The notes beneath the pieces were generated by a model. The model was not told where the DNA came from. It saw nothing but the letters and a program-made list of their open reading frames with translations, and searched no databases. A stretch of 32,000 nucleotides of DNA. It comes from Schaalia odontolytica (GTDB lineage Bacteria > Actinomycetota > Actinomycetes > Actinomycetales > Actinomycetaceae). The DNA is taken from the NCBI RefSeq assembly GCF_005696695.1, contig NZ_CP040006.1, positions 1,590,001 through 1,622,000 of the forward strand, written 5' to 3'. This document shows, piece after piece, positions 1,897-28,578 of this stretch. A program made the translations under genes and the position numbers. How positions within the stretch are numbered: position 1 is the first letter of the stretch; each line of letters opens with the position of its first letter.

Positions 1897-2529
1897 TCAG
1901 GACCGCGGCTCAAAGGGGCTGACCGACACCGAGGGCATCTCCTGGCACACGCGCAAGGTCAGCTGCAGGCTCGTCGCGCCGGTGCCAGCCTCGGGCATGA
2001 TGTCGACCAGCTCCGAATCAGCGGGGTTGCAGCCTTCGACGCCGTCCGTCGATTCTGCCGTCAGGGTCACGCCCAGGCGGCCTCCCTGAGCGATCGTGTA
2101 GACGTTTCCGGGATCCTCGCCGTCGCGCACGGCGGTGGAGATGACGGAGCCGCCGCCGGAGAAGATGATCTGCGGGAAGCCGTCAATCCAGCACGAGGGC
2201 CCCTCGTTTATGAAGCCGATTTCCACGTACGTGGTGCCGCCCGCCTCCTGCTGAGAGTCGATGGAAGGCTGCAGGTTCGTTAGGTCGCAACGCTGGTCGT
2301 TGTCGGCAACGTTCACCTCGGGGGCCTGGTTACCCTCGTCGGGCACGCCGCTCTGGGGGCCAGCGCCGCTCTGGGCGGGCATGTCGTTCTGCGAGGCAGA
2401 AGCGCTCGGGGAAGCGGACGAGGCCGTCGACCCCGACTGGGGCTGCGTGCCCTGCGGGGAACAGGCGGCGATACCCAGGGCCAGGGCGGACAGGGAGGTC
2501 ACGGCAAGAATGCGTCGCGTGTTGATCAT
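1897..2529 (-). CDS. Secreted lipoprotein, DUF4232-like
   Basis: N-terminal signal with lipobox (LALGIAAC). A low-complexity S/A/Q linker follows. The C-terminal domain has the Cys pattern and the GGTTYVEIGFINEGPSCWIDGFP segment I associate with DUF4232 actinobacterial lipoproteins. Confidence 0.7.
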   Translation of the reverse strand: MINTRRILAVTSLSALALGIAACSPQGTQPQSGSTASSASPSASASQNDMPAQSGAGPQSGVPDEGNQAPEVNVADNDQRCDLTNLQPSIDSQQEAGGTTYVEIGFINEGPSCWIDGFPQIIFSGGGSVISTAVRDGEDPGNVYTIAQGGRLGVTLTAESTDGVEGCNPADSELVDIMPEAGTGATSLQLTLRVCQEMPSVSVSPFEPRS

Positions 2530-2644
2530 GGCCCCATCCTATGAAGTGCCACGCCACTCACGCACAGCCACGCCGGGCAGAGCCCAGGGGTGACAAGGGG
2601 CGCACCGGGCGTTAACTGCCCACCCGGCCCCGGCCTCGTCCCCT

Positions 2645-4147
2645 CTATCGAGTGACCGGCTCAATCTCCACGGGCGCCACGTCCATCTCAGCCAGAGGCA
2701 CCACCCGATCCTTGCGCGCGACGTGGTAGCCCCACCAGACCGCGCCGAACAGCGGCAGGCCGATGTAGGAGGAGGCGACCTCCCAGACCTGGCCATGAAG
2801 CACGGCTTCATAGTTCTGTCCCGCCATGACCACCAGGCACATGACGAAAGCGATGATCGGGCCCGCCGGGAAGAACGGCGATCGATACGGCAGGTCCTCG
2901 AGGCGATATCCCTGCAGCAGGTACGCGCGGCGGAAACGAATATGACTGACCGCGATACCCAGCCACATGATGATGCCGGAAATACCGACGATGTTCACCA
3001 GCCAGATGTACGCGTCGTTGAAGACCAGCTGCGTGAGGAAGCCGAGCGCCGCGGTCACCGTCGTCACCGCCATCGCGTACGCCGGCACGCCGCCCTTGGT
3101 GACGCGGGCGAAGATCGCGGGCGCCTGGCGCTTGAGGGCCATCGAGTGCAGCATGCGCGAGGCCGCGTACAGGCCCGAGTTACCCGCGGACAGGATCGAG
3201 GTCAGGATGACCGCGTTCATGACAGCGGCCGCCGCGCCAATCCCCATGCGCGCGAACACGAGCGTGAAGGGCGACTGGGCGATGTTGTTCGCCGAGTCAT
3301 CGGCCGCGCTCAGCAGACTCGGATCCGTGTACGGCAGCAGCGTGCCGATCACGGCGATCGCGCCAATGTAGAAGAACATGATGCGCCAGAACACCGTGCG
3401 GATCGAGCGCGGCACGTCCCTGCGCGGATTCTCAGACTCGCCCGCTGCAACGCCCACCAGCTCGGTGCCCTGGAAGGAGAATCCGGCGATCATGAAGACC
3501 GCGATAACGCCCACGAAGCCGTTATGGAAGGGCGCGTCCCCGGTCGTCCAATTCGACAGACCCGGAGAGTTTTCGCCCATCACGCCGGCGATCATGAAGA
3601 CGCCCGACAGGACAAAGACGATGACAATGACGACCTTGATGGCGGCCAACCAGAATTCGGCCTCACCGTAGACTCTCGCCGAGAGCGCATTGAGCCCAAC
3701 GACGATCACGAGGAAGCCCACCGCCCATATCCACGAAGGAACGGACGGGAACCAATAGGCCATAACCAAGCCCGATGCCACAAGGTCCGCGGCGACCGTC
3801 ACCGCCCAGTTGAACCAGTAGTTCCACCCCATCGCGAAGCCGAAAGACGGGGAAATGAACTTCGTGGCGAAGGTCTGGAAGGACCCCGCAACGGGCTGGT
3901 GCGCGCTCATCTCACCTAGGGACTGCATGAGCAGCAGCACCATCAGGCCAATCGCCGCGTAGGCGAGAAGGGCACCGCCCGGACCGGCGTTCGCGACTGT
4001 CGCACCGGAGGCCAGGAAGAGGCCCGTGCCGATCGCGCCGCCGATGGCGATCATCTGCATATGACGCGACGCCAGGCCGCGCTTGAGCGCCGTGTTGGAG
4101 CGCTCGCGCACATCGCTGGCGATGTCGTCGGGAGTGGGGGTAGCCAT
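2645..4147 (-). CDS. Amino acid permease (APC superfamily, AroP/LysP-like)
   Basis: Contains the classical signature HMQMIAIGGAIGTGLFLASG and about 12 hydrophobic segments. I chose the start at ATG 4147 (MATPTPDD...) because GAGGAA lies 7 nt upstream. The listed ORF extends to 4231 without a convincing RBS. Confidence 0.85.
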   Translation of the reverse strand: MATPTPDDIASDVRERSNTALKRGLASRHMQMIAIGGAIGTGLFLASGATVANAGPGGALLAYAAIGLMVLLLMQSLGEMSAHQPVAGSFQTFATKFISPSFGFAMGWNYWFNWAVTVAADLVASGLVMAYWFPSVPSWIWAVGFLVIVVGLNALSARVYGEAEFWLAAIKVVIVIVFVLSGVFMIAGVMGENSPGLSNWTTGDAPFHNGFVGVIAVFMIAGFSFQGTELVGVAAGESENPRRDVPRSIRTVFWRIMFFYIGAIAVIGTLLPYTDPSLLSAADDSANNIAQSPFTLVFARMGIGAAAAVMNAVILTSILSAGNSGLYAASRMLHSMALKRQAPAIFARVTKGGVPAYAMAVTTVTAALGFLTQLVFNDAYIWLVNIVGISGIIMWLGIAVSHIRFRRAYLLQGYRLEDLPYRSPFFPAGPIIAFVMCLVVMAGQNYEAVLHGQVWEVASSYIGLPLFGAVWWGYHVARKDRVVPLAEMDVAPVEIEPVTR

Positions 4148-7046: not shown

Positions 7047-7123
7047 TGGTAGCGGGGACAGGATTTGAACCTGCGACCTCCGGGTTATGAGCCCGGCGAG
7101 CTACCGAACTGCTCCACCCCGCG
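7047..7123 (-). tRNA. Initiator tRNA-Met (anticodon CAU), 77 nt with encoded CCA
   Basis: Minus-strand sequence: CGCGGGGTGGAGCAGTTCGGTAGCTCGCCGGGCTCATAACCCGGAGGTCGCAGGTTCAAATCCTGTCCCCGCTACCA. It folds as a cloverleaf with loop CTCATAA. Three consecutive G-C pairs close the anticodon stem, and there is a C1/U72 mismatch at the top of the acceptor stem. Both are initiator hallmarks, and it closely resembles E. coli tRNA-fMet. Confidence 0.95.
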
Positions 7124-19630: not shown

Positions 19631-20241
19631 GCGCGCGCCTGGTCTTCGCAACCTCCAACGCGCACAAGGTCAGCGAGCTCGAGGCCATCCTGGCCCCCGC
19701 GTGGGAGGGCTTCGAGGCCGGCTGCGTGGCGCGCATGAGCGATTTCGACGTGGCTTCCCCGGTCGAGGACGGTGTGACCTTCGAGGAGAACTCCCTCATC
19801 AAAGCCCGCGCGCTGGCTCGCGCCACCGGCCTGGCTGCCATCGCCGACGACTCCGGCATCACGGTGGACGTGCTGGGCGGAGCGCCCGGTATCTTCTCCG
19901 CGCGCTGGGCCGGCTCCCACGGGGACGATGCGGCGAATCTGCGTTTGCTCATCGATCAGCTCTCCGACGTTCCCGACGCCCACCGTGGTGCGGCCTTCGT
20001 GTCGGCTGCTGTCCTCGTCACCCCGGACGGTCGCGAGTTCGTCGAGCGCGGCGAGGTGCGCGGCACCCTGACGCGTTCCCCTCGCGGCGAGGGCGGGTTC
20101 GGCTACGACCCGATCTTTGTCCCCGAGGGCTTCGAGGTCACGACCGCTCAGATGAGCGCGGAACAGAAGAACGCGATCAGCCACCGCGGCATCGCCTTCC
20201 GCGCCCTCATGCCCCACATCGTGGAGTACCTGCGCGGCTGA
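19627..20241 (+). CDS. rdgB: Non-canonical purine NTP pyrophosphatase RdgB/HAM1
   Basis: Motifs [14 protein letters not shown] and [11 protein letters not shown]. The GTG start overlaps the rph stop (GTGA at 19627-19630). Confidence 0.9.
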
Positions 20242-20253
20242 GAAGCACCGCAG

Positions 20254-20295
20254 ACACAAATGTGCCGGGCACCCGAGGGTGTCCGGCACTTGTGT
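20254..20295. terminator. Imperfect long hairpin after rdgB, also downstream of the small - strand ORF
   Basis: ACACAAATGTGCCGGGCACC (20254-20273), loop cgag, GGTGTCCGGCACTTGTGT (20278-20295). About 16 pairs form, with one wobble and small bulges. Confidence 0.55.
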
Positions 20296-20316
20296 GTTGC
20301 GCCCGCAGGCGCGCCA

Positions 20317-20439
20317 TCAACGGGCGACGAGGTTGCCGAAGATGGGGCGGTCCATCGAGAACTGCAGGGGGTTGCGCTGTTGGCGCCACCTGCGGTGATG
20401 GGCGAGGCGATGAAGGAGTGATGCGACGAAACGAGACAT
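20317..20439 (-). CDS. Candidate small basic protein, 40 aa (MSRFVASLLHRLAHHRRWRQQRNPLQFSMDRPIFGNLVAR), below the ORF-track cutoff
   Basis: Hand translation of the minus strand. AAAGAGGAG lies 6 nt upstream of ATG (20439-20437) and the stop TGA is at 20319-20317. 31 of 40 codons end in G/C, like real genes in this window. The hairpin at 20254-20295 lies just downstream. I do not recognise a family. Confidence 0.4.
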   Translation of the reverse strand: MSRFVASLLHRLAHHRRWRQQRNPLQFSMDRPIFGNLVAR

Positions 20440-20637
20440 TGTGTGCTCCTCTTTGAGTACAGTGCGATGGATCTGTCACCGCGTCGTACTGCCATAGTGC
20501 GCCTGATTGTCCATGTTTTCCATCGATATTTTCTTATTTTTCTATGAAGCGTTTCTTACGGACTTTTCCTTGGTGCAGCTTGGAAAATTCTTGACTGAAG
20601 AGGGTCACTTCTCTTAATTAATCAGCCGGTGGATACA

Positions 20638-20670
20638 GTGAGGGGGCAGGCCCACGGCCTGCCCCCTCAC
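20638..20670 (-). terminator. Perfect 15-bp stem, 3-nt loop hairpin downstream of the small membrane protein gene
   Basis: GTGAGGGGGCAGGCC cac GGCCTGCCCCCTCAC. It lies 20 nt after the stop at 20691. On the minus strand it is followed by tgtatcc, a weak U-tract. Confidence 0.6.
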
Positions 20671-20690
20671 CACCCCAATTCAGCGAAGAG

Positions 20691-21023
20691 TCAGCGAGCG
20701 CGCGCCAGGCGCGCACGACGCGGCAGGAAGCGGCGCACGTCGAAGAAGCGAACGACCTGCATGATGCGGCGCGCGAGGCGGTCACGCACGCGCCAGATCA
20801 TGGTGCAGCCGACACCGATGAAGATGGCGTTCGTCAGGAAGGACGGCCACGCGCCGGTGGATGCACATGCGAGGGCCAGCAGAATGCAGCTGGAGACATT
20901 GAGAGAGTGGTAGCGCAGGGAGTCGGGAGCGAAGCGCTTGGAGGAAACCAGGTAGTAGGCGGCGATAGAGGCGCCCGCACCCAGCCAACCGAGGACCGGA
21001 ATTACAAGAGATGAGATCGTCAT
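20691..21023 (-). CDS. Small 3-TM membrane protein with an Arg-rich C-terminal tail (possibly CBU_0592-family-like)
   Basis: Three hydrophobic helices (SLVIPVLGWLGAGASIAAYYLV, LNVSSCILLALACAS, SFLTNAIFIGVGCTMIW) followed by a basic tail. It is divergent from a LysR regulator. The family name is from memory only. Confidence 0.6.
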   Translation of the reverse strand: MTISSLVIPVLGWLGAGASIAAYYLVSSKRFAPDSLRYHSLNVSSCILLALACASTGAWPSFLTNAIFIGVGCTMIWRVRDRLARRIMQVVRFFDVRRFLPRRARLARAR

Positions 21024-24658: not shown

Positions 24659-26002
24659 ATGCCTGCATCAACATCTACTTCATTGCTGACTGATATGTAC
24701 GAGCTCACGATGCTCGACGCCGCCCTGAAGGATGGCACCGCGCATCGTCGCTGCACGTTTGAGCTGTTTGGGCGCCGCCTGCCCGCCACGCGACGCTTCG
24801 GCGTTGTCGCCGGCACCGGTCGCATTCTCGAGGCCCTGGAACGCTTCGAGTTCGACGCTGAACAGATCGATTGGTTGCGCGACCAGGGGATCATCTCCGA
24901 GGAGGCCGCGCAGTTCCTGGCTTCGTGGCGTTTCACGGGCGACATCTGGGGCTACGCCGAGGGCGAGTGCTACTTCCCCGGCTCTCCCCTGCTGACCGTT
25001 GAGGGCACGTTCGCGGACTGCACGCTCCTGGAGACGCTGCTCCTGTCGATCCTCAACCACGATTGCGCGGTGGCTTCCGCCGCCTCGCGTATGACGATCG
25101 CCGCCCACGGCCGTCCCTGCATGGACATGGGTGCTCGCCGTGCCCACGAACGCGCCGCGGTCTCCGCCGCCCGCGCCGCCATCATCGGCGGTTTCCAGGG
25201 CACCTCCGACCTCGAGGCAGCCAAGCGCTACGGGATCCGCTGCATCGGCACGGCCGCCCACGCGTTCACGCTCCTGCACGACAGCGAACGCGACGCCTTC
25301 GACTCTCAGGTCGCCAAGCTGGGCGCGGGCACGACCCTGCTCGTGGACACCTACGACATCAGGCAGGGCGTCATCAACGCGGTCGAGGCTGCGCGCGCTG
25401 CCGGCGGCGAGCTGGGCGCGGTGCGCCTGGACTCCGGCGACCTGGTCGCTGAAGCGTTCAAGGTGCGCGGACAGCTCGACGCGATGGGCGCGACCACCAC
25501 GAAGATCACGGTGACCTCCGACCTGGACGAGTACGCGATCGCCGCCCTCGGCGCGGCCCCCGTGGACTCCTACGGCGTGGGCACCAAGCTCGTGACGGGT
25601 TCGGGCGTCCCGACGGCCGCCCTGGTCTACAAGGTTGTCCAGCGCGAGGATAGCAACGGCCAGATCGTGTCTGTGGCCAAGAAGGCCGAGTCAAAGTCCA
25701 CGGTCGGCGGACGCAAGGTTGCCGGCCGCGTCATGGGCGAGGACGGCTACGCGACCGAGGAGCTCCTGCTCGTCGGCACGTCCTTCGAGGAGGGCCAGGC
25801 TCTGCTGGCCGAGCGCGGCGCCCGCCCGCTGCAGGTCCAGCTGGTCCGCGGCGGCCAGATCGACGCCGAAGCCTGGGGCCCCGAGGCGCTGTCCCGCGCC
25901 CAGGAGCGCCACCTGCGCGCCCGCAACGAGCTGCCCTACCAGGCGTGGCGCCTGTCCGAGGGCGAGGTCGCAATCCCCACGCGCTACGAGCAGGTCGACT
26001 GA
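24659..26002 (+). CDS. pncB: Nicotinate phosphoribosyltransferase
   Basis: N-terminal LLTDMYELTMLDAAL, then GTAAHAF and LLVDTYD motifs. 447 aa. Confidence 0.9.
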   Translation: MPASTSTSLLTDMYELTMLDAALKDGTAHRRCTFELFGRRLPATRRFGVVAGTGRILEALERFEFDAEQIDWLRDQGIISEEAAQFLASWRFTGDIWGYAEGECYFPGSPLLTVEGTFADCTLLETLLLSILNHDCAVASAASRMTIAAHGRPCMDMGARRAHERAAVSAARAAIIGGFQGTSDLEAAKRYGIRCIGTAAHAFTLLHDSERDAFDSQVAKLGAGTTLLVDTYDIRQGVINAVEAARAAGGELGAVRLDSGDLVAEAFKVRGQLDAMGATTTKITVTSDLDEYAIAALGAAPVDSYGVGTKLVTGSGVPTAALVYKVVQREDSNGQIVSVAKKAESKSTVGGRKVAGRVMGEDGYATEELLLVGTSFEEGQALLAERGARPLQVQLVRGGQIDAEAWGPEALSRAQERHLRARNELPYQAWRLSEGEVAIPTRYEQVD

Positions 26003-26182
26003 CCCTCAGCTCTCACTGAACGAAGCCCCGGCCTCGTCCTTCACTGAACTGCCTCCCGTTTCTTGGACATCGACATTGAAGTCCAGGGAATGGGAGGCTT
26101 TTCATGCCCGCAAATCCGCGCAGAACGCATGGCCCTGTACTGCAAGCCTGAGCCCTCGTCGACTGCTGAATCTACAAAGAAA

Positions 26183-26278
26183 CTTGTTACCCGATGGGGT
26201 GTAACACCTGATCGGGAAGATTCAACCCCTTCTGATCGGGTTGAATGCTCCCGATCAGGTTGAATCCTGACGATCGTG
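26183..26278 (+). repeat. Module A1 (about 95 bp), direct repeat of A2 at roughly 88% identity
   Basis: cttgttacccgatggggtgtaacacctgatcgggaagattcaaccccttctgatcgggttgaatgctcccgatcaggttgaatcctgacgatcg aligns by eye with 26688-26780. Hairpin 1 is at 26190-26216 and hairpin 2 at 26220-26246. A 19-nt tandem duplication spans 26234-26252 and 26253-26269. Confidence 0.85.
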
Positions 26279-26370
26279 TCTTTCGTATTCAGCGTCGGCC
26301 CGATGCAGGTCGGGAGGATCAGGCTCACCACGTCACCAATGACGAACTCACACATGTCCCCGCAGTGCGG

Positions 26371-26477
26371 CTTGTTGCTAAGCGGTGTTACACCACTTAG
26401 CAGGGTATTGCACCAGCTCGGAAGTGGTGTACTGCTCCCTAACTGGTGTAATGCTCCCTAAACGGCACAGTACTGCC
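26371..26477 (+). repeat. Module B1
   Basis: Hairpin 1: GCTAAGcGGTG-tta-CACCaCTTAGC (26377-26401). Hairpin 2: imperfect, about 26404-26436, with an 11-nt loop agctcggaagt. Tandem 19/20-nt units tggtgtaMtgctccctaa(a)c lie at 26425-26443 and 26444-26463. The palindrome CAGTACTG lies within 26464-26477. Confidence 0.75.
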
Positions 26478-26485
26478 TGCCGCAG

Positions 26486-26520
26486 CTTGGTTGACAGCAA
26501 TGTAACGACACATTGGGGCT
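26486..26520 (+). repeat. Module C (short; lead plus hairpin 1 only)
   Basis: cttggttgacag followed by CAATGT-aacgac-ACATTG (26498-26515). It shares the TGTAAC core with the hairpin-1 loop of A1. Confidence 0.5.
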
Positions 26521-26538
26521 TCCCCTGCCGCACGTGAG

Positions 26539-26646
26539 CTTGTAGCTAAGCAGCAGTGGACTACTTGGCGCAGCATTGCACTAGATAGAAGGCAGTGCAA
26601 TGCCCTCCTAACTAGTGCATTGCTGCTGCATCTAGTGCAGCACTAG
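26539..26646 (+). repeat. Module B2
   Basis: Hairpin 1: GCTAAGcAG-cagtgga-CTaCTTGGC (26545-26569). Hairpin 2: perfect 10-bp GCATTGCACT / AGTGCAATGC (26573-26603) with an 11-nt loop agatagaaggc. Further hairpin: CTAGTGCA...TGCAtCTAG (26612-26635). A 15-bp palindrome CTAGTGCaGCACTAG lies at 26632-26646. Confidence 0.75.
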
Positions 26647-26650
26647 GCTT

Positions 26651-26676
26651 GCCGGAGCGTCTCTCGGGCCGGTTTT
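26651..26676 (+). terminator. Weak candidate intrinsic terminator on the + strand after module B2
   Basis: GCCGGAG-cgtct-CTCGGGC (7-bp stem with one mismatch) followed by cggTTTTcc. This is the only T-run next to a hairpin in the island. Confidence 0.25.
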
Positions 26677-26687
26677 CCACGACAGGG

Positions 26688-26780
26688 CTTATTACCGATG
26701 GGGTCTGACACCCGATCAGCAAGATTCAACCCCTTCTGATCGGGTTGAATACTCCCGATCGGGTTGAATCCTGTCAATCG
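26688..26780 (+). repeat. Module A2, direct repeat of A1
   Basis: cttattaccgatggggtctgacacccgatcagcaagattcaaccccttctgatcgggttgaatactcccgatcgggttgaatcctgtcaatcg. Hairpin 1 is at 26697-26717 and hairpin 2 (ATTCAACCC/GGGTTGAAT) at 26724-26750. Confidence 0.85.
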
Positions 26781-26835
26781 CGCATTCGCTATCTAGTGGC
26801 AGATTGACGCGGAGCGGATGCTGTGGAACCGAAGG

Positions 26836-28578
26836 TCAGTGGCGGCCGACGAACCACTCGCGCAGCAGGGCGATGCGGGCCTCGATCTGCTCGGTCGTGG
26901 CCTGGGCGACCTCGGGGCCGCCGCAGCGCGAACGCAGGCGCGAGTGAATCGTCGCGTGGGTCTCGCCGGAGCGGCGCGACCATGTAGAAACCAGGTGCTG
27001 AAGCTCCTTGCGCTTGGCGGCACGCAGCTTGTGGGCGGGGATTCCGGCGTTTTCTTCACGCATCTTCTGCGCGGCGCGGGTCTTCTTCTGGGCGGCAACC
27101 TGGTCGGCCTGGCGGGCGCGCAGCAGGGTCGTCACCTGATCGGCGTCCAGCAGGCCGGGAATACCCAGATATTCCTGCTCTTCCTCGGAGCCGACCTCCG
27201 CGCCCGCGCCCCACGCGGCACCGTCGAAGAGGACACCGTCAAACTCGGCGTCCGCCCCCAGGACCTCGAACTGCGAGAGCAGGTCGGAGGAAGCTTTCTC
27301 CTCGCGGTTCGCGGCCGCGACGAGGGCATCCTCGGGATTCCACATGTCGTCTTCGCTGGCCTCGTCACGCTTGGGCCGGTCCAGCGCATGGTCGCGCTCG
27401 ACCTCCATGCCGCCGGCGAGCGTCAGCAGGGGCACGACGGAGGGGATGAAGACGGTGGCCGTCTCACCGCGGCGACGGGCTCGCACGTAGCGGCCGATGG
27501 CCTGGGCAAAGAACAGCGGCGTGGAGGCATTCGTCGCGTAGACGCCGACCGCGAGGCGGGGCACGTCGACGCCCTCGGACACCATGCGCACGGCGACCAT
27601 CCACTTGTCGGTGGAGTCGGCGAACTCGGAGATGCGGTCGGAGGCGTCCGCGTCGTCGGACAGGACGATCGTGGGGGCCTTGCCGGTGATCAGGCGCAGG
27701 TGGCGGGCGTAGGCGCGCGCGTGCTCCTGGTTGGAGGCGATGACGAGACCTCCCGCGTCGGGCACGGCGCGGCGCACCTCTTCGAGGCGCATATCGGCGG
27801 CACGCAGGACGGCGGGAATCCACTCGCCCTTCGGGTCCAGCGCGGTGCGCCAGGCCTGCTTCATCATGTCCTTGGTGAGGGGCTCACCCAGGCGGGCGCT
27901 GACCTCGTCGCCCGCGCTGGTGCGCCAGGCCATCTGCCCCGAGTAGGACATGAACAGGACGGGACGAACGACGCCGTCCTTGAGGGCATCGCCGTAGCCG
28001 TAGGTGTAGTCGGCGCGCGAGCGTCGGATGCCTTCCTCGTCCTCCTCGTAGGTGACGAAGGGAATCGGAGAGGTATCGGAGCGGAAGGGCGTGCCCGTCA
28101 GCGCCAGGCGCCGCGTCGCGTCCGTGAAGGCCTCGCGCACGCCGTCGCCCCACGACAGGGAGTCGCCGGCGTGGTGGATTTCGTCGAGGATGACGAGGGT
28201 ACGGTAGGCGCGGGTGCGCGCCGCATGAACGGCCGGGTTGGAGCCAATCTGCGCGTAGGTGACGGCCACGCCGTCGAAGTGGGAGCCGGCAACGCCCTGC
28301 GAGTTCGTAAAGTCGGGGTCGATGTGGATGCCGAAGCGCGCCGCGCTCGAGGCCCACTGTCCCTTGAGGTGCTCGGTGGGGCACACGACGGTGAGCTTGT
28401 CAACGATGCCGCGGGCGATCAGTTCGGTCGCAAGCGTCAGGGCGAAGGTCGTCTTACCTGCGCCCGGCGTTGCGACCGCCAGGAAGTCGCGCGGGGAGGT
28501 CGCCATGTAGCGATCCAGGGCAGCGGCCTGCCAGGCGCGCAACCTGCCAACGGGTGCGCGCCGGGTCGTCTCGCTCAC
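26836..28578 (-). CDS. Superfamily 2 DEAD/DEAH-box helicase (DNA/RNA helicase, ResIII-like N-terminal domain)
   Basis: Walker A ATPGAGKTTFAL, DEAH-type box LVILDEIHHAGD, and a helicase C domain. The GTG start overlaps the stop of the upstream DUF3039 gene (GTGA at 28578-28575). Confidence 0.85.
   Translation of the reverse strand: MSETTRRAPVGRLRAWQAAALDRYMATSPRDFLAVATPGAGKTTFALTLATELIARGIVDKLTVVCPTEHLKGQWASSAARFGIHIDPDFTNSQGVAGSHFDGVAVTYAQIGSNPAVHAARTRAYRTLVILDEIHHAGDSLSWGDGVREAFTDATRRLALTGTPFRSDTSPIPFVTYEEDEEGIRRSRADYTYGYGDALKDGVVRPVLFMSYSGQMAWRTSAGDEVSARLGEPLTKDMMKQAWRTALDPKGEWIPAVLRAADMRLEEVRRAVPDAGGLVIASNQEHARAYARHLRLITGKAPTIVLSDDADASDRISEFADSTDKWMVAVRMVSEGVDVPRLAVGVYATNASTPLFFAQAIGRYVRARRRGETATVFIPSVVPLLTLAGGMEVERDHALDRPKRDEASEDDMWNPEDALVAAANREEKASSDLLSQFEVLGADAEFDGVLFDGAAWGAGAEVGSEEEQEYLGIPGLLDADQVTTLLRARQADQVAAQKKTRAAQKMREENAGIPAHKLRAAKRKELQHLVSTWSRRSGETHATIHSRLRSRCGGPEVAQATTEQIEARIALLREWFVGRH

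Follow-up and report, generated by a model that had tools for sequence, protein, structure and literature searches.

An array of hairpin-bearing modules between convergent genes of Schaalia odontolytica as a probable fragment of a dispersed, ordered DNA repeat

When the hairpins of neighbouring sequence modules differ in sequence and nevertheless remain paired, it must be asked whether the fold itself has been selected. This question is raised by an 834-bp gap (26003-26836) in a 32,000-nucleotide stretch of the Schaalia odontolytica chromosome (contig NZ_CP040006.1, positions 1,590,001 to 1,622,000), referred to here as the window. The gap separates two convergent genes, pncB, which encodes nicotinate phosphoribosyltransferase, and a DEAD/ResIII helicase gene, and its GC content (53-56%) is lower than that of the flanks (65-76%). 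An earlier note on this DNA described in the gap several paralogous modules, named A1, B1, B2 and A2, with two kinds of hairpin, and proposed that the stems had been maintained by compensatory changes, which would indicate selection on a folded RNA, single-stranded DNA (ssDNA) or cruciform rather than on the primary sequence. In the present analysis that interpretation was partly supported: the modules are paralogous and share one architecture, and their arms do differ in a complementary manner between module types. The reading that we favour, to which we assign a probability of about 0.6, is that the four modules are a fragment of a dispersed, non-coding, ordered higher-order DNA repeat of the S. 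odontolytica group, similar to the repetitive extragenic palindromes and bacterial interspersed mosaic elements (REP/BIME) and to the BOX elements, and that their hairpins are not a selected RNA fold.

The modules, of approximately 100 bp, are built of units of 19-21 nt laid out as one direct unit, two inverted units, a loop of 7-9 nt and one to four further direct units (→ ← ← loop → →). In hairpin 1 the first direct unit meets the first inverted one, and in hairpin 2 the second inverted unit meets the next direct unit; direct repeats of 19 nt were detected in each module by a repeat finder. A head with the sequence CCRCR-N6-GCTTGT is common to every module. There are four unit types, A, B, C and D: the unit reads GATCRGGTTGAATNYTCCC in A1 and A2, TAACTGGTGTAATGCTCCC in B1, TAWCTAGTGCAWTGCTG.. 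in the module formerly called B2, and GTAACGGGTGCAGCGTCCC in type C. B2, which had been taken for a copy of B, is in consequence assigned to a separate type, D. The A modules are dominated by a palindrome with arms of 23 bp that overlaps the 3' arm of hairpin 1 and competes with this hairpin. Conservation in the family is not highest at pairing partners: TCCC, the GGT core and the loop of hairpin 2, CTTCTGATC, all of them motifs of the primary sequence, are the most invariant positions.

In the window, nhmmer matched the modules on the + strand at 26172-26265, 26359-26452, 26527-26618 and 26675-26769. A1 and A2 are 78% identical over 123 nt, and the sequence GATCGGGTTGAAT, with up to two mismatches, occurs seven times in the window, six of them inside the gap, against a chance expectation of 0.53. 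The sequences and positions reported previously for the hairpins were all found (Table 1), including the hairpin 2 of type A, ATTCAACCC-N9-GGGTTGAAT, in both A modules, and the imperfect hairpin 2 of B1; the count of 13 matches in 16 positions between 3' arms of hairpin 2 was also correct. The c/a mismatch described in hairpin 1 does exist in B1 and B2, but it is confined to these copies and cannot be generalized: the consensus of type B at this site is a T-A pair, present in 58 of 64 copies. Type A, for its part, does keep a 2x2 internal loop.

The covariation of the arms was analyzed between types and within types. In an alignment of 35 modules that represent the four types, 9 of the 15 upper-stem pairs scored had changed on both sides, and the covariation score was 0.313 versus 0.146 after shuffling; none of 500 shuffles gave a value as high, and the score was at most 0.150 when the partners were slid. 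The direct units d1 and d2, which have strand and orientation in common and cannot pair with each other, showed the same behaviour, with 52 both-changed cells (16 when shuffled) as compared with 42 for the arms of hairpin 2 (15 when shuffled). Likewise, in 152 A and B modules d1 and d2 agreed in 96% of the cases (86% shuffled) and the arms in 92% (83% shuffled). Given that the identity of d1 and d2 co-varies no less than the complementarity of the arms, the covariation observed between types is not evidence for a selected fold.

Within types, covariation was absent, which is the outcome that the earlier note, when it suggested that homologous modules be aligned and tested, had itself named as contrary to its proposal. 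No both-side change was found among 43 diverse copies of type A (308-340 of 500 shuffles scored as high), and the long palindrome of this type likewise lacked compensation; for the 64 copies of type B, 268 of 500 shuffles scored as high, and only two pairs showed changes on both sides, both of them at helix ends where most copies are unpaired. Variants that break pairs are common in type A, where 15, 13 and 17 of the 43 copies are unpaired at three pairs and remain uncompensated. Transitions away from Watson-Crick pairs produced G·U in 65 cases and A·C in 60; the further pair states comprised 146 other mismatches and only five alternative Watson-Crick pairs. From these counts, neither strand looks like a selected RNA.

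All four modules are predicted to fold better than their shuffled counterparts. Relative to shuffled sequences, the z values for RNA folding were -5.8 for A1, -4.1 for A2, -3.6 for B1 and -2.2 for the D module (B2), and those for DNA folding were -6.5, -5.1, -1.9 and -2.2, respectively, and the complementary strand of the modules folds equally well. In 213 copies the mean RNA stability of the + strand exceeded that of the - strand by 3.6 kcal/mol, a surplus that is mainly due to two G·U pairs fixed on the + strand of the type-B consensus. With non-pairing units that co-vary equally, no compensation within types and no strand signal, the proposal of selection on the fold rather than on the primary sequence was not sustained.

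The modules are not restricted to this gap. A degenerate pattern of two adjacent units, for which we estimate about one chance match in 596 Gb, matched at least 120 stretches; among the matches listed, all belong to assemblies of Schaalia, Actinomyces or Pauljensenia, or to assemblies with Schaalia-type genes. Approximately 25 assemblies are represented among the matches listed, and each assembly carries at least 7-8 loci scattered on large contigs. A profile built from the module head recovered at least 218 full modules in these loci and the window, and the copy number per genome is in the tens, as a lower bound. Across A1 (26183-26270) the copy depth climbs from 4 to around 180. As judged from these matches, the repeat family is confined to the S. 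odontolytica group. No similarity was detected in plasmid and phage collections, and the scan of viral contigs gave two matches, one of which (L148) is a host chromosomal locus; the similarity of the second to other loci is limited to short stretches. No description of the family was found in the searchable literature, so that a repeat family with four unit types and ordered arrays apparently had not been described. Loci of Schaalia type (L032, L062, L119, L146 and others) were also present in assemblies titled Xylanimonas cellulosilytica 352_XCEL and Sanguibacter keddieii 250_SKED; in the 250_SKED locus L119, pncB is 98% identical to that of the window at codon positions 1 and 2, and both assemblies are, on these sequences, probably mislabelled.

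The genomic position of the modules is strongly biased, in that they are found almost exclusively at the 3' ends of genes. None of them lies inside a called gene of the fetched loci, and among the called intergenic gaps of these loci modules were present in 59 convergent gaps and absent from 49, whereas the corresponding figures were 25 and 263 for tandem gaps and 3 and 89 for divergent gaps. The enrichment in convergent gaps has an odds ratio of 15 and p = 3e-25, a value that is inflated because the orthologues included in the count are not independent. When the neighbouring genes were grouped in distinct families, 28 of 37 had the 3' end toward the array; for families of at least three members the figure was 17 of 17. 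These neighbours are ordinary housekeeping genes. The orientation of the modules shows no pattern relative to the nearer gene. In the REP arrays of P. fluorescens orientation flips between replichores; here, the modules agree with the local GC skew in only 65 of 118 loci.

In loci with several modules these are co-oriented in 61 of 64 arrays, with a median distance of 168 nt from start to start, and the types follow a preferred order: A>B was counted 22 times, B>D 17 and D>A 21, versus 5 for B>A, 2 for D>B and none for A>D. Loci that are not orthologous align with the array of the window over 240-440 nt with 68-80% identity, and the alignments run through the spacers. The ordered types and the alignments that span spacers indicate that the array of the window (A-B-D-A) is a piece of a cyclic higher-order repeat; the co-orientation of the modules can be inherited from such a composite.

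The array is also variable between strains. Contigs whose pncB protein is identical to that of the window carry the gap in three alleles, the array of 834 bp, a gap of 330 bp whose only module is of type A and recombinant between A1 and A2 (locus L008), and a module-free gap of 106 bp that contains a plain GC-rich bidirectional hairpin. In relatives whose pncB protein is 91-98% identical to that of the window the gap measures 23-121 bp. Since pncB is mostly followed by short module-free gaps, the array represents an indel polymorphism. Orthologous arrays from five other assemblies differ by an extra 19-nt unit (L046), by deletions ending in the short repeats GATCG or CCGAT and by the loss of whole modules, differences which argue that the arrays are remodelled by slippage and by recombination among the repeats they contain.

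A dispersed higher-order repeat would account for the apparent compensation as follows. The hairpins would arise from units placed head to head, and types A, B, C and D would differ by a swap of the whole unit sequence. Given that the whole unit differs between types, every unit copy of a module, inverted or direct, carries the same substitutions, and for this reason the differences resemble compensatory change between paralogues. The units may be recognition sites of a putative trans-acting protein, a DNA-binding or recombination protein, that would seed arrays at new convergent gaps, and the elements would persist at the 3' ends of genes because insertions are presumably tolerated there. The hairpin potential would then be a by-product or at most a feature at DNA level, and not a selected RNA fold, although the hairpins may have a role in ssDNA or as a cruciform, as in the REPINs, the hairpin-forming pairs of inverted REP sequences.

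Several observations weigh against this reading. The layout → ← ← → → is kept in all four types, and being constant, the inverted arrangement itself may matter; in the same way, the order and co-orientation of the modules could reflect a direction-dependent function. Orthologous modules are 88-96% identical, as compared with 82-87% at the third codon positions of the flanking genes and 63-77% in two spacers, which suggests constraint or gene conversion and not pure junk. Furthermore, no transposase, REP-associated tyrosine transposase (RAYT) or integrase adjoins any module among the neighbouring genes of the fetched loci, clear terminal inverted repeats (TIRs) are lacking, with no consistent TIR at the ends of 13 independent solitary modules, and only one clean insertion was seen, of 166 nt and flanked by the 6-bp repeat TGCGGG (L090 versus L135), most of the other indels being recombination between internal repeats. 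The signs of constraint are compatible with gene conversion between copies, with a protein that recognises the units or with a role of the hairpin in ssDNA, and do not single out RNA.

Among the other explanations, a REPIN-like replicator was considered, in which the long imperfect palindrome folds in ssDNA and is the substrate of a single-copy HUH/Y1 enzyme (RAYT or IS200-like) or of another transposase encoded elsewhere, so that the fold would be functional as ssDNA. The equal folding of both strands, the strong DNA folds of type A, the palindromic layout kept in four sequence types and the better conservation of modules than of spacers agree with this explanation, and co-oriented tandem arrays of mixed type, with several sequence groups in one genome, are also known from REP/REPIN systems (PMC3116915). 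However, compensatory changes are described as common in REPINs (PMC3116915) and are absent within the types analyzed here, in which stem-breaking variants are frequent; types B and D of the window are weak as DNA folds, the GTAG-type 5' tetranucleotide that is conserved in REPs is absent, and no RAYT-like gene flanked by modules was found in approximately 0.9 Mb of module-rich DNA. We consider a replicator of this kind unlikely. A related proposal, somewhat more doubtful, is that the arrays are products of a new actinobacterial replicator with a cyclic composite, A→B→D and sometimes C, that measures approximately 500 nt and in which a putative unlinked protein would recognise the 19-nt units. 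It would insert in variable phase, always at convergent junctions and without the hallmarks of RAYT, TIR or target-site duplication, and would explain the conservation of modules above the synonymous rate, their strict co-orientation and the fixed order of the types.

An RNA element would be transcribed either within the 3' untranslated regions that belong to the convergent genes or in the form of small 'sibling' RNAs in tandem, and would act through its hairpins and the C-rich motifs UCCC / CCUCC, which resemble an anti-Shine-Dalgarno sequence, or would stabilise or terminate the upstream mRNAs. TCCC is the most invariant part of the unit and appears 2-5 times per module, the site directly after stop codons makes read-through transcription likely, the modules are more conserved than synonymous sites, and the two fixed G·U pairs of type B and the higher mean stability of the + strand point in the same direction. 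Nevertheless, new G·U pairs were as frequent as A·C mismatches, the direct units, unable to pair, co-vary as much as the arms, covariation within types is absent, and the modules are oriented independently of the nearer gene. Neither a sigma-70-type promoter nor an intrinsic terminator was found at the modules, and the upstream flanks of solitary modules share no sequence before the head. A search of the window against Rfam 15, with gathering and permissive thresholds, identified only a tRNA, and in the gap only sub-threshold matches to miRNA-type hairpins that are attributable to chance; no family matched modules of any of the four types, 15 further loci included. An RNA element is, on this balance, improbable. 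We regard as even less probable that the modules are regulatory or architectural sites kept for the benefit of the host, where the 19-nt units would be operators of a dimeric or oligomeric host protein involved, for example, in topology or termination at convergent junctions. Protein-binding arrays typically show such an iteration of direct and inverted units, spaced by about two helical turns, and the conserved primary-sequence motifs, the strong enrichment at convergent junctions and the conservation above synonymous sites are in line with it; but the arrays are dispensable, as they are missing next to an identical pncB and from the short gaps of close relatives, four divergent unit types would require four specificities, copies decay by changes that break pairs and units, and insertion sequence (IS) elements insert into modules.

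The coordinates of the array and of its borders are collected in Table 1. The hairpin located just after the pncB stop codon, which lies outside the repeat family, is probably the pncB terminator in the array-bearing allele. In the module-free allele (locus L003, 4366-4408) that place is occupied by the GC-rich bidirectional hairpin, which is much stronger (z -9.5), and the left arm of the latter persists in the window at 26024-26040.

Table 1. Features of the pncB-helicase gap and its borders (window coordinates)
Feature	Position	Strand	Details
pncB (nicotinate phosphoribosyltransferase gene)	24659-26002	+	stop codon borders the gap
Imperfect hairpin followed by TTTTCA	26045-26110	+	just 3' of the pncB stop codon; outside the repeat family; z -4.9
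Whole array	26164-26790	+	four co-oriented modules A-B-D-A and spacers, pncB-helicase gap
Module A1, type A	26172-26290	+	head ACTTGT 26182-26187; hairpin 1 26190-26216
A1, 23-bp-arm palindrome	26206-26260		91% complementary; inner hairpin 2 26220-26246
A1, direct 19-nt units	26234-26252, 26253-26271		degenerate third unit 26272-26290
Module B1, type B	26356-26478	+	head CCGCA 26360-26364 and GCTTGT 26370-26375
B1, hairpin 1	26377-26401
B1, hairpin 2	26403-26438		imperfect; arms quoted in the earlier note 26404-26436
B1, direct units	26422-26440, 26441-26459		degenerate unit 26460-26478
Module D ("B2" of the earlier note), type D	26527-26646	+	unit ..TAGTGCAWTGC..; head CCGCA 26528-26532 and GCTTGT 26538-26543
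D ("B2"), hairpin 1	26545-26569
D ("B2"), hairpin 2	26573-26603
D ("B2"), further direct units	26607-26627, 26628-26646
Module A2, type A	26673-26776	+	head CCACG 26677-26681 and GCTTAT 26687-26692
A2, hairpin 1	26695-26719
A2, palindrome	26710-26764		inner hairpin 26724-26750
A2, direct units	26738-26756, 26757-26775
DEAD/ResIII helicase gene	26836-28578	-	stop codon borders the gap

Other features were observed in the window and in the related loci. A second long convergent gap of the window (450 bp, 20241-20691) has no modules. The tRNA-Met gene of the window (7047-7123, - strand) and a TPP riboswitch in the related locus L044 (3154-3254, - strand) are unrelated to the modules. The only gene flanked by modules in the approximately 0.9 Mb of module-rich DNA is a malic-enzyme gene, with co-oriented arrays on both sides in L080 (2325-5468) and L146 (2328-5465); in L081 (3446-6197) other open reading frames (ORFs), one of them with ankyrin repeats, occupy the same slot, which is bordered by an SLFN/AlbA_2 gene and a DEAD helicase gene, and in these loci the arrays seem to border a variable gene slot.

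Candidates for element ends and for a partner enzyme were examined and discarded. The sequences GCTGAAT / ATTCAGC around A1 match in the manner of TIRs, but the orthologues do not preserve this match. The only transposase seen belongs to an IS3-family element that interrupts a module and whose ends are unrelated to it; this element, with ORFs of the HTH_Tnp_1 and rve kinds, lies in L129 (approximately 2313-3607), where the interrupted module is of type B, and its ends are TGTGGGCC... and ...CCCCACA. A second, unrelated repeat is a miniature inverted-repeat transposable element (MITE) of approximately 115 bp with TIRs of 17 nt, TTTCGCACGTAATTCCC...GGGAATTACGTGCGAAA, found for instance in L034 (870-980) and L049 (6988-7100); around 20 of these elements occur across L028-L147, none of them in the window, and they are often in the same convergent gaps as the modules. 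In addition, arrays of a short repeat, (T/A)AACCTATCCGC, in both orientations, adjoin solitary modules (L118, upstream of approximately 488; L064, flanks of 1993-2086).

The closest counterparts of the modules are found among known dispersed repeats. In Proteobacteria, REP sequences of two groups form ordered tandem arrays with a period of 184 bp and a single orientation per array (Bertels & Rainey 2011, PMC3116915), and REPINs, in which REPs paired in inverted orientation give hairpins in ssDNA or in mRNA, comprise several sequence groups per genome, have a cognate RAYT and commonly show compensatory changes (PMC3116915). Like REP, BIME and REPIN, the Schaalia modules are extragenic and multi-copy, and consist of inverted short repeats able to form long hairpins; they share with REP/REPIN the presence of several sequence groups in one architecture, the ordered arrays of single orientation (168 bp here) and the vertical persistence at orthologous loci. 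In contrast, they have no sequence similarity to these elements, belong to another phylum (Actinomycetota), and contain a unit of 19-21 nt with extra tandem direct copies; compensatory changes within the family and a repeat-flanked RAYT, searched for in the same 0.9 Mb, are missing, and the copies per genome are in the tens (a lower bound) versus hundreds.

The BOX elements of Streptococcus pneumoniae, whose sub-module measures 45 nt as compared with 19 nt in the Schaalia modules, are the other close counterpart. BOX is modular: the count of its internal boxB modules varies, its length differs from strain to strain and stem-loops are predicted in it (Croucher et al. 2011, PMC3049150), and its significant excess between convergent genes has been read as that of a parasitic element tolerated downstream of genes (PMC3049150). 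The Schaalia modules resemble it in the variable internal tandem sub-module, the length variation between strains, the stem-loops and the excess in convergent gaps, as well as in that they often cluster with other small repeats and IS elements. BOX, however, has boxA and boxC as distinct ends, with terminal inverted repeats as well as target-site duplications, neither of which could be demonstrated for the Schaalia modules, and ordered arrays of several types are particular to the latter.

With MITEs the modules share the small size, the absence of coding sequence, the dispersal, the strain-variable presence and an overall palindromic character. Unlike them, they lack clear TIRs, a consistent target-site duplication and, as far as found, a related autonomous IS; co-oriented ordered arrays are atypical of MITEs, and the true MITE of the same genomes looks quite different. 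The co-oriented imperfect palindromes with a common structure and differing sequences also recall the attC sites of integrons and of CALIN arrays (clusters of attC sites lacking integron-integrases), but the stems of the modules derive from repeated units, and the 'cassettes' would be non-coding and of 60-70 nt. An integron was rejected, since the RYYYAAC...GTTRRRY (R''/R') pair is absent, the module head is GCTTGTT(A/G/C)C, and no integrase is present in the window or among the neighbouring genes. A CRISPR array was rejected as well, because neighbouring modules differ in type and the spacers recur at other loci; repeats of a type III antitoxin were rejected on anatomy, and small ORFs because the 19-nt period is not a multiple of 3 and indels of 1 nt occur.

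These results have consequences for the way in which such regions are analyzed. The covariation of arms between paralogous modules is no proof of a selected fold if the stems are made of repeated units, and a suitable control is to ask whether the non-pairing direct copies co-vary equally. For annotation, gaps of this kind should not be called non-coding RNA genes. The S. odontolytica group includes important oral commensals that are hosts of Saccharibacteria; in this group the arrays are strain-variable markers for typing, and they mark convergent junctions that are prone to recombination. The real potential for novelty lies only in the arrival of arrays at new convergent gaps and in the possible binding of a protein to the units; if a mobilising enzyme exists, REPIN-type biology would be extended to Actinomycetota.

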